This document shows, in pieces, positions 22,544-41,773 of a stretch of 64,000 bases of DNA. The notes below the pieces were generated by a model. The model searched no databases and was not told the DNA's origin. It worked only from the letters and a program-made list of their open reading frames with translations. Both the position numbers and the translations under genes were made by a program. Source of the stretch: Bryobacterales bacterium (lineage in GTDB: Bacteria; Acidobacteriota; Terriglobia; Bryobacterales; UBA6623); the NCBI GenBank assembly GCA_963422375.2, contig OY729427.2, forward strand, positions 352,001 to 416,000, read 5' to 3'. Every line of letters starts with the position of its first letter. The first letter of the stretch is position 1.

Positions 22544-22834
22544 TTGAGAAATTCCTACATCGTGTGCTATGACATCTGCGAACCCAAGCGCTTGCGCAAG
22601 GTGTTCAAGCTTCTCAGGGGGTGGGGAGACCACCTGCAATACTCGGTGTTCGAGTGCCAGCTAAGCCGCACGGACTTGGTGCGACTGCGGGCGAGACTGT
22701 CGGATATGATCCATCACAAGGAAGATCAGGTGCTTTTCGTGGACTTGGGGCCGACCAAGGGGCGAGGTGAGCGCGTTGTTTCCGCGATCGGGAAGCCGTA
22801 CGTGAGCGTCGACTCCCCCCTGATCGTGGTGTAG
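22544..22834 (+). CDS. cas2: CRISPR-associated endoribonuclease Cas2 (TTG start)
   Basis: [31 protein letters not shown]. Confidence 0.95.
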
Positions 22835-23031
22835 GACCTCGGAGCGGGACGAATGACAAGGAAGCCCGTCGGGCAGCACAGGCATGGCGCTCGACTAACG
22901 GCTGGCAGGCGGGGCGCAACCGGAAGACCCTGCGGGCGAGCCAAGAATTCGAGGCGAGGGCTTCCGCCGCTCTCCGACGCATCGAAGGCTCGCACCGGGA
23001 GCGGGACTGACCCCTCCACGGGCCGGGACGC

Positions 23032-24819
23032 ATGTTCATGAGCACGGCATTGGCAGTGCCGGTCGATGGCCGGACCGAACGGGAGCTTCCGGACTACCTG
23101 CCAGCCCGCATGATCAACGAGTACGCGTACTGTCCCAGGCTCTTCTACTACGAGCAGGTCGAGAGCGTCTTCGTGCATAACGAGCACACGGCAACAGGGG
23201 CCGCCCAGCACAAGCGGGTTGACCGGGAGGGCAAGAGCGCTCCCAAGCCAGACGGCCCCACCGACGAGCCGGTGACGGTAACTTCGATCACGCTGGCCTC
23301 GGACGAGTACCGAGTGATAGCGAAGCTTGACCTAGCTGAATTCAAGGATGGGCGAGCCACACCCGTGGACTACAAGAAGGGCCGACCGATGCGCACGGAT
23401 GATGGGCTAGGAGCGTGGCCCAGTGACCGGGTCCAGCTGGCCGTCCAGGCGATCGTCCTCAGGGCGAACGGGTATCGCTGCGAGGAAGGAGTTCTCTTCT
23501 ACCAGCAGACTCGCCAGCGCGTGAGACTGACCTTCGACGATGACGTGATGCGGGAGGCCAGGACCGCCATCGAGGGCGCATGGGCGACCGCAGCGTCGCC
23601 AGTGATTCCACCCCCTCTCGTGGATTCCCCAAAGTGCCCCGGCTGCTCTCTGGTAGGGATTTGCATGCCTGACGAAACAACGCACGTCCTGGAGTCGCCC
23701 GGCGAAGATACTGCCCTGCAATACAATCTGTTCGAACCGGAGGCACCCACGCCGAAGAAGGGACCGCAGCGCGAGACGCGCTTGCTGGTCGCTCCCCGCG
23801 TGGACCTGCGTCCGCTGTACCTCAACACACATGGGCTACGCGTGGGCAAGTCGGGAGACGTCCTCAAGATCAAGGAGCGCGACAGGATCATTCAGGAAGT
23901 TCGGATTCACGAGACTTGTCAAGTCAATTTGATGGGAAATATTCAGATCACAACACAGGCAGTTCAACGACTCTGCGAGCTAGAGAAGCCAATTTGCTAT
24001 TTCTCGATGGGCGGATGGTTCTACGGAATTACGACGGGTATGAACACGAAGAATGTGATGCTTCGGAAGGCGCAGTTCGTACTCGCCGACCAGCCATGGT
24101 TTTGTCTGCGAGTTTCGTCGGCGTTGATAGCGGGAAAAATCCGTAATCAAAGAACAATGCTTCTTCGGAATCACATTGAACCGGACCCGCTTGCCATGCG
24201 AGAAATGAAGCGCCTCATTGGTAGCGCAGAAAGAGCCAGAAGCCTAGATGAGATTCTAGGTATCGAGGGATATGCAGCAAAGATCTATTTCGGAGAACTT
24301 TCTGGAATGATAAAGCAAGATCACCAGACTTCTGAGGACGAAATTCTTCAGTTTAATTTCGCTACCAGGAACCGTCGTCCCCCACGTGATCCAATCAATG
24401 CCTTACTTTCATTCGGATACAGCCTCTTGGCCAAGGATTTTACGATCTCGTGCTACGCAGTGGGATTCGACCCAATGATTGGATTCTTCCATCAGCCTCG
24501 GCACGGCCGACCTGCCCTTGCCTTGGACCTGATGGAGCCGTTGCGCCCTCTAATCGCGGACTCCGCCGTACTGAGCGCCGTGAACACTCGAATGGTCACG
24601 GAAGGGGACTTCGTCAGGGCCGGAAAGGCCGTGTCCCTGACGGCGAAAGGACGGAAGAACTTCCTGCGAGCATACGAGGCGAGAATGGACTCCCTCGTGA
24701 CTCACTCTCTCTTCGACTACCGAGTCACGTATCGGAGGCTGCTAGAAATTCAAGCGAGGCTGCTCGGGAAGGTCATTGAAGGGGAGTTGCCTGACTACCC
24801 GGTCTTTTGCACGCGATGA
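23032..24819 (+). CDS. cas4/cas1: Cas4-Cas1 fusion (type I-G/I-U style)
   Basis: Cas4: YCPRLFYY, KLD, DYKKG, QLAVQ, CPGCSLVGIC. Cas1: KIRNQRTML, GIEG, RNRRPPRDPINALLSFGY, FFHQPR, ALDLMEPLRP. Confidence 0.95.
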   Translation: MFMSTALAVPVDGRTERELPDYLPARMINEYAYCPRLFYYEQVESVFVHNEHTATGAAQHKRVDREGKSAPKPDGPTDEPVTVTSITLASDEYRVIAKLDLAEFKDGRATPVDYKKGRPMRTDDGLGAWPSDRVQLAVQAIVLRANGYRCEEGVLFYQQTRQRVRLTFDDDVMREARTAIEGAWATAASPVIPPPLVDSPKCPGCSLVGICMPDETTHVLESPGEDTALQYNLFEPEAPTPKKGPQRETRLLVAPRVDLRPLYLNTHGLRVGKSGDVLKIKERDRIIQEVRIHETCQVNLMGNIQITTQAVQRLCELEKPICYFSMGGWFYGITTGMNTKNVMLRKAQFVLADQPWFCLRVSSALIAGKIRNQRTMLLRNHIEPDPLAMREMKRLIGSAERARSLDEILGIEGYAAKIYFGELSGMIKQDHQTSEDEILQFNFATRNRRPPRDPINALLSFGYSLLAKDFTISCYAVGFDPMIGFFHQPRHGRPALALDLMEPLRPLIADSAVLSAVNTRMVTEGDFVRAGKAVSLTAKGRKNFLRAYEARMDSLVTHSLFDYRVTYRRLLEIQARLLGKVIEGELPDYPVFCTR

Positions 24820-25424
24820 GAGACCCATGAAGCAGATCACTCCTGAATGCGCGGAATCATGCCAACTCCTGTCCGAGCTAAGTGACGCAGCGATCTACTT
24901 CGCCACCGACACCGAAGTGCGGTGACAGCCGTCCGGACTGACAGACCGCTGAGGAATCTCGTTACGACCTGCCATGCCGGCTCTTGGGATGCAACGACAC
25001 GAACACCTATGCTTCTCACCTAGGGCTGTCTCAAGCCTTCCGAGCGTGATGCTCCAGAATTCGTTTGCTCCCCGAAGAAACTTCTTGTTCCACGGCGACC
25101 GCCGATGCCTGCGAGTGGGATCAATGTCCCATTCCAGATGTGATCCATTCGGGACTCCCATGCGCGGTCAGCCGGCGACCGCCTCGCCGACCGCCTGTCG
25201 AGCGTGGCCGGAACTATACTGTTGAAGTGGTCTCGCAGACCCTAGGATCGGCAACTCGAAGATTGCGAATGGTCGATTGCTCGCGCGCTTCGTCTGGAAA
25301 CGCTCCCGTCCGCTGCACTCACAGGGGCAGGCATTCATGCGACATGCGAATCCAACGACCGCCGACCCATAGTCGATCCTGTGGATCGCGCTGCCCGGAA
25401 CGTGCCCGGCTGAATTCGGCTCGA

Positions 25425-40298: not shown

Positions 40299-40553
40299 GT
40301 GCCTGTGACAAAACTCGTATCTCCTTGACAACAAAGTAGTTAGGTCCAATCTTTCAAGGCGAAGATTTCACTGGAACGCTACGACTGGTCCGAAATCCTG
40401 CCAATTCTGGGTAGAGCGCGGAAATCTTCGCGATTGGCGGCTGAGCAACTTCCGACCTTGGGCCATATATGTTGTGTTTGGAGATCCATCCGACATCAGG
40501 ATGTAGTATGAAATGCTGATCAGGCCAGAATTCAGGGGTTTTGTCACAAGCAC
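40299..40553. mobile_element. 255-bp MITE-like insertion in csx1
   Basis: 16-bp inverted ends GTGCCTGTGACAAAAC / GTGCTTGTGACAAAAC (1 mismatch); TAGGTA duplicated at 40293-40298 and 40554-40559; removal restores the csx1 frame. Confidence 0.88.
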
Positions 40554-40618
40554 TAGGTACCCGGTCTTCATCTCGTGCGAAGCCTTCCCGAGGAACCTAA
40601 CGAGAGTGTGGCGACCCA

Positions 40619-41773
40619 TCAAGCTCTTCCCGCCAGTCCGATGACCCGGACGGCGCGTGGCTGCACCTTGAGACCGAATCGAGAGCAACGCTTGCCGGGA
40701 ATCCTCTCACGGGCGGAGATCAGGTACGGCCCGGCCCGCTTCCGCCCGAGCGCTTCGATCAGGCGCCTGTTGATGTGAGACTTCTGCGGATCGAAATTGC
40801 TCTTCGTCAGGCCGCTCCCCAAGCTCTTCACGGCGGCCTCGTAACGCCCGGAGTACGTGCTGACCACGCGGCCGTAATAGGAGAGGAACTCTCGGGCCGC
40901 GCCGGGCTCGGACCAGTGAGTGCCATGCTTGCCCGAGCGAGCTCTCTCCGCAAGCATCCAGTAGAACGCGAACTGCGACGGTCTCAGGCTGAACGCCTCG
41001 CCTCCAGCAGTGACGCGGCAGCGAGCGACATCAAGCATCAAAGCGACAGGCGGAAGCGAGAGTTGCGCTTCGGCAACAGCCTCGGAGAACGAGACCCGCC
41101 CGTCGAGCAGGCTGGCGGAGACTCCGTCGCGGAAGCGCACGAATGGTATGTCCGCTAGCGCAACACTAGCCCGATGCTTGTCCAGCGCGGTGTCGCTCTC
41201 CCCGTCAGCAGAGATCAGTTCCGGGGTTGGCGAGGGGTAGAAGAAGTCGGCGTGCGATTCGAATGGAGAGTCCACCAATACGTGCGACAGACGGTCCTGC
41301 GAACGCCCGTACAGGGACAGCGCGAAGCCCGCATAGAGCCCCATGGTCCTTCGTCCTCCTGCGATAGACACGTGAAGGGCACAATGCTCGTCCTTGGTAA
41401 GCGCTCGAACTTGATCGGTCAGGAAGTCGGCAACACTCGTATTGTCATCCACCGTTCTGATGTCGCCGAGCGGACGACCGACCGCATCCTCGAGCACGCG
41501 GATTCTCCCTAGGTCGAATTCAATCTCCGGCAAGGCGTAGTTGGCTCGCAAGCGGTGAAACCATCCGTCCGGCTTTGGGAGAAGCCTCCGCCTTGCCTCC
41601 GCAGCACCTTCCTCGCTCGTGACCAGTAGCACCTCAGTCGGCACCCAAGCGGGTCTGCTGTTCACGGCCAGCGCGTACAGGGTCTCTGTAACGACCTGCG
41701 GGGCGAGTCCCGTCACTGCCAGCAAGATGCGCCGGTCGTACCGGTGAGGGCTTCGGAGTGCGTCGTTCGTCAT
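40619..41773 (-). CDS. NE0113-family (TIGR02584) CARF protein, putative ring nuclease with C-terminal wHTH-like domain
   Basis: ILLAVTGLAPQVVTETLYAL, DIRT, LHVSIAGGRRTMG, QDRLSHVLV, FFYP, LADIPFVR; stop overlaps csx1 start (TGATG). Confidence 0.88.
   Translation of the reverse strand: MTNDALRSPHRYDRRILLAVTGLAPQVVTETLYALAVNSRPAWVPTEVLLVTSEEGAAEARRRLLPKPDGWFHRLRANYALPEIEFDLGRIRVLEDAVGRPLGDIRTVDDNTSVADFLTDQVRALTKDEHCALHVSIAGGRRTMGLYAGFALSLYGRSQDRLSHVLVDSPFESHADFFYPSPTPELISADGESDTALDKHRASVALADIPFVRFRDGVSASLLDGRVSFSEAVAEAQLSLPPVALMLDVARCRVTAGGEAFSLRPSQFAFYWMLAERARSGKHGTHWSEPGAAREFLSYYGRVVSTYSGRYEAAVKSLGSGLTKSNFDPQKSHINRRLIEALGRKRAGPYLISARERIPGKRCSRFGLKVQPRAVRVIGLAGRA

Follow-up and report, generated by a model that had tools for sequence, protein, structure and literature searches.

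Type III effectors that draw on the array of a type I system have been described before, and type III loci served by a type I array are known to do without a dedicated Cas6 and without an array or adaptation genes of their own. We consider here a candidate of this kind, carried by a 64-kb stretch of DNA from a Bryobacterales bacterium (hereafter the window; positions refer to its first letter unless a contig is named), in which a CRISPR array lies between type I-G adaptation genes and a type III-B operon. The closest described system is that of Haliangium ochraceum, where, as we propose for the window, a Cas6-less Cmr1-6 complex is fed by the I-G protein Csb2 and Cas10 signals to ancillary effectors. 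Passages of the report on that system relate that cmr1-6, csb2 and a two-repeat array gave target-RNA-dependent immunity in Escherichia coli, and that target-RNA-dependent signalling by cyclic triadenylate (cA3) led to abortive infection (10.1101/2023.06.23.546230). The ancillary effectors named in those passages are SAVED-CHAT and PCaspase, whereas the window has a Csm6-like CARF-HEPN protein, an NE0113-family protein and a broken TM1812-family gene. A III-B effector supplied by Csb2 is not new, this precedent being in print.

Three further systems help to place the locus. The I-G system of Thioalkalivibrio sulfidiphilus, as portrayed in passages of its report (PMC9638904), resembles the window in its 36-nt repeat, in cleavage 4 nt 3' of the hairpin to leave an 8-nt handle (predicted for the window), in a large subunit of the Cas8g1/Csx17 type, in a TTN protospacer-adjacent motif (PAM) and in the presence of a III-B locus in the genome. 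There, however, the I-G locus is one and the III-B system has its own array, whereas the I-G locus of the present genome is split, and its only array has the III-B operon at its flank. In Marinomonas mediterranea, according to parts of the published account, the III-B system uses I-F CRISPR RNAs (crRNAs), can back up type I immunity and itself acquires spacers from RNA and DNA, whereas the only Cas1 of the window is the I-G fusion (PMC5576922). It is like the window in that III-B draws on a type I array, but the partner is I-F with Cas6f there and I-G with Csb2 here. The Cst, Cmr and Csa modules of Pyrococcus furiosus are said to draw on a common crRNA pool, and that organism reportedly has a stand-alone Cas6 and several arrays, unlike the genome studied here. 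Portions of the literature place its Cmr module at a type I locus (PMC4666368), within a composite cluster of Cst, Cmr and Csa in which the label 'I-G' (PMC4666368, PMC4436667) is an older name for Cst and does not denote the subtype with Csb2.

We read the present locus as probably a split composite type I-G/III-B CRISPR-Cas system on one array, with crRNAs processed in trans by Csb2. The window spans C1:352001-416000 of the genome under study (G000), an assembly of 5.996 Mb in three contigs that is 96.4% complete, and its open reading frames (ORFs) were typed by NCBIfam and Pfam family scans, with curated cut-offs quoted per model. The array (26282-28516, + strand) comprises 31 repeats of 36 nt, GTCTCCCCGGCCGCAAGGCCGGGGCCTCATTGAAGC, and 30 unique spacers of 35-41 nt. 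It is preceded by cas2 (22544-22834, +; TIGR01573 at 40 bits against a cut-off of 24.5, PF09827 at 73 bits), the sole cas2-like match genome-wide by tblastn, and by a Cas4-Cas1 fusion, the type I-G adaptation integrase cas4g/cas1g (23032-24819, +; NF049935 cas4g_cas1g at 716.7 bits, cut-off 560). This fusion is the genome's single Cas1, and it matches the fused I-G type (NF049935) and not ordinary type III Cas1, in keeping with the grouping first proposed for it. Past the array, and converging on it as one operon on the - strand with all six ORFs open, lie cmr6 (30266-31324; TIGR01898 at 82.5 bits against 51.1), cmr5 (31321-31719; TIGR01881 and PF09701 above cut-off), cmr4, which encodes the Cas7-like backbone and target-RNA nuclease (31716-32666; TIGR02580 at 200.5 bits), cmr3 (32600-33910; PF09700 at 183.8 bits), cas10/cmr2 (33907-35769; TIGR02577 at 148.9 bits, with the Pfam Cmr2_N and palm2 domains) and cmr1 (35786-37165; TIGR01894 at 37.5 bits against 28.65, with a RAMPs domain), five of the six being above NCBIfam cut-offs. 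Cmr4 has an Asp in its N-terminal G-rich loop (GAVDLPI), which we take to be the catalytic residue. The 620-aa Cas10 starts with its Cmr2_N domain, has an intact GGDD (YAGGDDVLAM) and finds its closest solved chain in a III-B Cas10/Cmr2 (9arw_A); no HD nuclease domain was matched in the Pfam scan or the translation, which is no bar to III-B membership, since HD is missing from many III-B Cas10 proteins. Family scans of the window ORFs gave no cas3, cas7 or cas8, and profile searches of the whole genome returned neither Csb2 nor Cas6 within the 64 kb. The original prediction had recognised cas2, the cas4-cas1 fusion, the 36-bp repeat, the convergent cmr1-6 genes and three CARF genes, with which the family scans agree except that one CARF gene is frameshifted; the lack of cas6, csb2, cas3 and cas7/cas8 that it had noted is true of the 64-kb window and not of the genome. 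It had also seen no reverse transcriptase, at which no dedicated search was aimed.

The genome holds one array, as judged from a repeat search at <=6 mismatches and a k-mer periodicity scan, from which arrays with <3 exact 20-mers would escape. Other candidates for a second array were rejected as tandem repeats with identical "spacers", and no second cas1, cas2 or cmr set was found in the genome. Genome-wide searches with PF01881, TIGR01877 and PF10040 returned no stand-alone Cas6, so that neither the separate III-B array nor the cognate cas6 for which a whole-genome check had been proposed was found. The notion of a Cas6 hidden in the window was likewise rejected: three Cas6 models came back empty there, and tblastn with the C-terminal halves of relatives' Csb2 proteins found no remnant. 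Csb2 (TIGR02165) scores above cut-off at three genomic loci, each within a type I-G effector module and each module without an array or cas1 of its own. Module (a), cas3g-csx17(cas8g1)-csb1-csb2 (C1:426486-434084, -), with all four genes above cut-off, is on the same contig as the array; it starts 10.5 kb past the window end, and its csb2 stop lies 45,970 bp from the array end. Module (b) consists of cas3g, cas8g2, csb1 and csb2 (C2:289671-295940, +), and module (c), at about 113.8-122.3 kb of C2 (-), of a cas3g divided between two ORFs, genes for a Cas3-extension protein and Csb1, a csb2 for an 818-aa protein with halves parted by an insert, and a TM1812-family gene that overlaps the end of this csb2. 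The module (a) proteins appear from their sequences to be free of decay. They keep 277/286, 187/198, 167/175 and 168/178 of the columns invariant among relatives (94-97%), and Cas3g has Walker A and HDIGK motifs (a simple pattern search found no DExH motif). Five His columns are conserved among the C-terminal halves of the a-type Csb2 proteins. Just upstream of this cas3g lies a 176-aa ORF (C1:434207-434737, -), possibly what is left of a second adaptation gene, of which 38 residues match the Cas4g/Cas1g model at its N-terminus (E 2.6e-10); tblastn with the window Cas4g/Cas1g protein missed it.

The repeat also points to Csb2. Its minimum-free-energy fold has an 8-bp stem over nt 5-24, followed by CCUC and then by the 8-nt AUUGAAGC, an 8-nt tag being the form used by Cmr complexes. 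All ten repeats compared (the window's and those of nine relatives) form a stem of 7-8 bp with its 3' base at nt 24. The stem sequences vary among the ten, and the 12-nt 3' tail, CCUC plus AUUGAAGC, is invariant except in one relative, G007; eight of the nine relatives' repeats end in GGCCTCATTGAAGC, and that of G007 ends in AAAC. The stems were taken from single-sequence folds; RNAalifold on an ungapped alignment, in which loop lengths are unequal, under-called the stem. On paper, the geometry of the window repeat is identical to that published for Csb2 cleavage: passages of the T. sulfidiphilus report state that Csb2 alone cuts the 36-nt I-G repeat at a point 4 nt 3' of the foot of the hairpin, yielding the canonical 8-nt handle, and that its isolated C-terminal Cas6 domain still cleaves (PMC9638904).

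Synteny among relatives connects module (a) with the array. When 40 relatives were searched, full-length orthologues of the cas4/1 fusion were found in 10 genomes at 59-75% identity, and 40 kb was fetched around nine of them, the tenth being on a 3.5-kb contig. In all nine, which are of the same genus as G000, cas2 is followed by cas4/1 and then, about 185-450 bp later, by an array, and in seven of the nine orthologues of module (a) are near: csb2, csb1, csx17 and cas3g at 42-72% identity in G016, G019, G010, G020, G008 and G021, and csb2 and csb1 only, then the contig end, in G014. Six of these lie within the fetched stretch, and that of G021 appeared after an extended fetch. In five of the six (G016, G010, G014, G020 and G008) the module (a) orthologues are convergent with the array at its far end; in G019 they are on the array's strand, about 4 kb beyond it. 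G021 is the closest relative (Cas4/1 identity 75%), and its genes run cas2, cas4/1, a 76-repeat array, cmr6-cmr4-cmr3-cas10-cmr1-TM1812 on the opposite strand and cas3g-csx17-csb1-csb2 in about 30 kb. Since this order matches that of the window plus module (a), the window locus would be the same composite with more DNA between its parts. Past the III-B block of the window's genome come about 32 kb of native-codon genes, with a GC content at third codon positions (GC3) of 0.83-0.93 against 0.64-0.80 for the cas genes, which include argininosuccinate synthase, ornithine carbamoyltransferase, acetyl-CoA synthetase and QueF. Remnants of the insertion sequences (IS) IS30 and IS1595 follow, and a breakpoint search at the 3' end of csb2 found a multi-copy IS-like repeat abutting it. 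On the upstream side of cas2 the genes are in synteny with those of G017, and in the case of LytB with G021 too. From this arrangement we infer that a formerly contiguous locus was split by IS activity.

These comparisons bear on the larger claims of the original prediction. Its suggestion that the array is shared with a remote I-G Cascade gains support from a complete module (a) on the contig, whose orthologues adjoin the orthologous cas2-cas4/1-array in relatives, and the same architecture, which it had proposed to look for in other genomes, is seen in G021, with a cmr operon between the array and the I-G operon. The effector swap with a non-canonical maturation nuclease that it offered as an alternative fares poorly, given three Csb2 proteins in trans, the Csb2 cleavage geometry of the repeat and a published case of III-B with csb2. 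The "undescribed system" for which the window had been a candidate drops out: the probable maturation enzyme is encoded beyond the window, within an I-G effector 46 kb from the array, and III-B run with csb2 is already in print.

Across the genus, Cas10 was found in 5 of 25 genomes, all five of which also have a Csb2 match (C-terminal fragments only in G015) and none a match to Cas6 (TIGR01877, PF01881); the genus yields a Cas6 match in G002 only, a genome without a Cas10 match. Type III genes adjoin an I-G-type array in three of the five Cas10-positive genomes, these being III-B in G000 and G021 and a III-D-like Csx10/Csx7 operon in G007, and no array lies within the stretches fetched from G015 and G023. 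In G007 (C1:690001-710000), where the Csx10/Csx7 operon adjoins an I-G-type cas2-cas4/1-array, the I-G effector is reduced to a 315-aa ORF equivalent to the C-terminal (Cas6) half of Csb2 with its conserved His columns kept (L047 10617-11564, -), followed by a TM1812 gene (9248-10543, -), with four flanking IS elements; the 315-aa ORF may be a stand-alone Cas6 derived from Csb2. In G021 (L022 10247-13944, -) the Cas10 matches fall in ORFs of 267 and 387 aa with a 554-aa ORF without a family match between them, where DNA may have been inserted or the middle of the protein may have diverged very far. Beyond the genus, relatives of the window Cas10 at 25-43% identity are encoded at 11 loci, with no match to the Cas4/Cas1 fusion at any of the 11. 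The closest Cmr module among them, in a Gynuella metagenome-assembled genome (MAG; 43% Cas10 identity), lies beside an array with a 28-nt repeat, presumably I-F-like, and the Cas10 locus of a Methanothrix MAG has an ORF resembling the Csb2 C-terminus upstream of cmr1. Given such varied arrays beside related Cas10 loci, this Cmr lineage appears to lodge beside whichever type I array is available.

The spacers carry a record of how the array has been used. Twelve of the 30 (spacers 3, 6, 7, 8, 9, 13, 15, 16, 17, 21, 22 and 27; window 26464-28258) match prophage-like DNA of the host itself. Six target a prophage at about 2.407-2.452 Mb of C2, with genes for a CI/LexA-like repressor, a capsid, portal and terminase pieces and an integrase, beside which, at the prophage edge, lies a 108-aa protein of the Cas_VVA1548 family (PF09652; C2:2451549-2451875, +). 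Six target an element of about 37 kb, present as copies 99-99.9% identical on all three contigs, which encodes an HK97-type capsid, a collagen-repeat protein of 1704 aa, a glycosyltransferase and an oxygenase of the 2OG-Fe(II) type; it occupies C2:1307816-1345000 and spans the contig ends on C1 and C3, which suggests that C1 and C3 are circular replicons sharing a prophage-like region. Immediately 5' of the protospacers, TTC occurs in 7/12 against 1.4% genome-wide (p = 8e-11) and TTN in 9/12 against 2.8% (p = 2e-12), an enrichment strong enough to indicate that the self-matching spacers are real acquisitions selected by Cas4/Cas1; a TTN PAM is cited for I-G in passages of PMC9638904. Five self-matches are perfect, three of them flanked by TTC (spacers 16, 17 and 27, the last in three copies) and two by CTC and CTT. 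Of the 20 mismatches in the seven imperfect ones, 11 lie within positions 1-9, where 24% would be expected (p = 0.003), and six of the seven spacers have at least one there. This bias suggests that PAM- and seed-dependent targeting of the resident elements has been selected against, and hence that crRNAs from this array have been functional. Mismatches near the 5' end may also blunt Cas10 activation, so the pattern fails to separate I-G from III-B. On our own choice of ORFs, 8/12 protospacers are antisense to the predicted mRNA, a proportion that is uninformative as to strand bias.

The flanks of the array and of the cmr operon supply the remaining parts. Only the last two repeats, at the far end from cas4/1, are degenerate, which puts the leader on the cas4/1 side. 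There, only 26103-26281 (+) of the gap is homologous by blastn to the relatives' leaders, that is, to DNA directly 3' of cas4/1 in G021, G010, G016 and G019. The rest of the gap (24820-26102) is a 1.28-kb insertion unique to G000 and absent from relatives, where the interval is about 185 bp. It has a sub-threshold Y1_Tnp match (E 0.025), no ORFs with coding-like composition and no degenerate repeats at <=13 mismatches, and is probably a decayed IS200-like remnant; the 1.46 kb from cas4/1 to the array, which carry no annotation, thus resolve into leader and insert, and a hidden gene or repeats there were rejected. Between the array and cmr6 lies the gene for a Csm6-like CARF-HEPN ancillary RNase of the TIGR02710 family (28807-30132, -; 174 bits, with Pfam Csm6 HEPN and 6H domains), in which the R-x6-H motif reads RNSSILAH at residue 370. 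A second TIGR02710-like (Csm6-like) paralogue, 28% identical to it, is found at C2:1150258-1151427, remote from any cas10. Beyond cmr1 come an IS1380-family transposase fragment (37755-38312, +; NF033539 and PF13701 match ORF residues 1-186 only, at model positions 77-263 of 419), a frameshifted CRISPR-associated CARF gene of the TM1812 family (about 39164-40298, -; a fragment matches TIGR02221), on which the G007 orthologue aligns by tblastn as two segments in different frames meeting at 39906-39913, and a CRISPR-associated CARF gene of the NE0113 family (40619-42040, -; TIGR02584 at 209 bits and PF09623 at 143 bits, residues 105-327), whose true start may be internal.

As a split composite, the system might operate as follows. 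Cas2 and the Cas4g/Cas1g fusion would add spacers selected beside a 5'-TTC/TTN PAM, and the leader at 26103-26281 would drive + strand transcription of the array. Csb2, a Cas5-Cas6 fusion, from the operon 46 kb downstream would cut each repeat 4 nt 3' of the hairpin, a task that the two other csb2 genes on contig C2 could share, and would leave crRNAs with the 8-nt tag AUUGAAGC. These would load the I-G Cascade and Cas3g for PAM-dependent attack on DNA and, after trimming at the 3' end, would also load the Cas6-less Cmr1-6 complex. Once a complementary transcript is bound, the HD-less Cas10 would make cyclic oligoadenylate, predicted to switch on the Csm6-like CARF-HEPN RNase encoded nearby and, possibly, the protein of the NE0113 family.

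Several points weigh against this composite. Passages of the T. sulfidiphilus report have Csb2 holding the cleaved 3' hairpin tightly within Cascade, with a dissociation constant of about 43-55 nM (PMC9638904), so that supply to a second effector could be limited. Between the array and the I-G operon stand the III-B block, housekeeping-type genes over about 32 kb and remnants of IS, which makes the expression of that operon and its coupling to the array uncertain. Cmr3 falls below its NCBIfam cut-off (TIGR01888, 61.5 against 100.4) and passes in Pfam only, and the surroundings of the III-B operon are decaying, as seen in the frameshifted TM1812 gene and the IS1380 fragment. The passage on H. 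ochraceum describes no control without csb2 (10.1101/2023.06.23.546230). Finally, the three perfect, TTC-flanked self-targets are at odds with a fully active I-G system; their tolerance could possibly stem from prophage anti-CRISPRs, from I-G expression lost after the split or from III-B sparing silent genes.

Such tolerance lends interest to a different emphasis, which we consider doubtful: that in this strain the Csb2 of the displaced I-G operon acts mainly as a trans-acting Cas6 for Cmr, and that the array is chiefly a III-B, transcription-dependent guard on resident prophages. Were that true, silencing of I-G DNA cleavage, for instance by an undiscovered prophage anti-CRISPR, would explain the tolerated self-protospacers, and G007, with the Cas6 half of Csb2 beside a III-D operon, would be the end state of such a takeover. 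A related and unlikely account has Csb2 processing the array while I-G interference is off, through prophage anti-CRISPRs or loss of expression after the split, leaving III-B as the sole effective user with transcription-dependent tolerance of silent prophages. It fits the five spacers perfect against resident prophage DNA (three with TTC), the repressor, integrase, capsid, portal and terminase genes in the targets, and the 46-kb displacement of an I-G operon with IS remnants at its csb2 3' end. It sits badly with I-G proteins that lack signs of decay and with a spacer record (6/7 mismatched spacers mismatched within positions 1-9, 2/5 perfect ones with a non-consensus PAM) that suggests selection against PAM- and seed-dependent targeting, and no anti-CRISPR gene was identified.

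It is quite unlikely, in our judgement, that the III-B operon is an inert or decaying passenger, with the array serving one or more I-G Cascades only and Cmr unloaded. The broken TM1812 gene and the IS1380 fragment beside cmr1 could be read in this way, as could the two tblastn segments of Cas10 in G023, which has the closest same-genus Cmr, and the spread of the G021 Cas10 matches over a run of three ORFs, and seed-biased mismatches suit type I pressure; yet the six cmr ORFs are open, the GGDD and HEPN motifs and the Asp of Cmr4 are all intact, and differing type III lineages sit beside this type of array in three of the five Cas10-positive genomes of the genus. The 8-nt tag is also the kind that Cmr complexes use, and the excerpted account of H. 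ochraceum presents a Csb2-supplied III-B system as functional. As for the maturation enzyme itself, RNase E reportedly matures the crRNAs of the Synechocystis III-Bv system, and a host nuclease of that sort, other than Cas6, might do so for Cmr here while Csb2 serves Cascade only. We hold this to be very improbable. Cas6 is indeed absent from the III-B locus and the genome, and Csb2 remains product-bound in vitro according to passages of PMC9638904, but the repeat has the exact Csb2 geometry and a 12-nt 3' tail conserved over ten genomes, and the genome has three csb2 genes.

If the split composite is the correct description, type III effectors settle beside an I-G array and depend on Csb2, an arrangement met with in no fewer than three genomes of a single genus whose type III lineages differ, and a CRISPR locus can be split by IS activity and still persist. 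Its heavy self-targeting makes the strain a reasonable place to seek type I-G anti-CRISPRs, and the strain is also suited to testing conditional prophage tolerance by III-B.

Two features of the window upstream of the array may be recorded in addition. Between a DegP-like gene and cas2 lies a 540-aa ORF (20745-22367, +) without a family match and with a cas-like GC3 of 0.71; it is missing from that place in G017, to judge from a DegP-cas2 gap of about 540 bp, and has a relative at 42% identity near the III-B locus of G015. Farther upstream, a low-GC island at 8000-12000 (0.54-0.59 against about 0.68 in its surroundings) contains genes for a restriction endonuclease of the XhoI family (9262-9903, -) and a methylase fragment of the Eco57I type (10223-10774, -).

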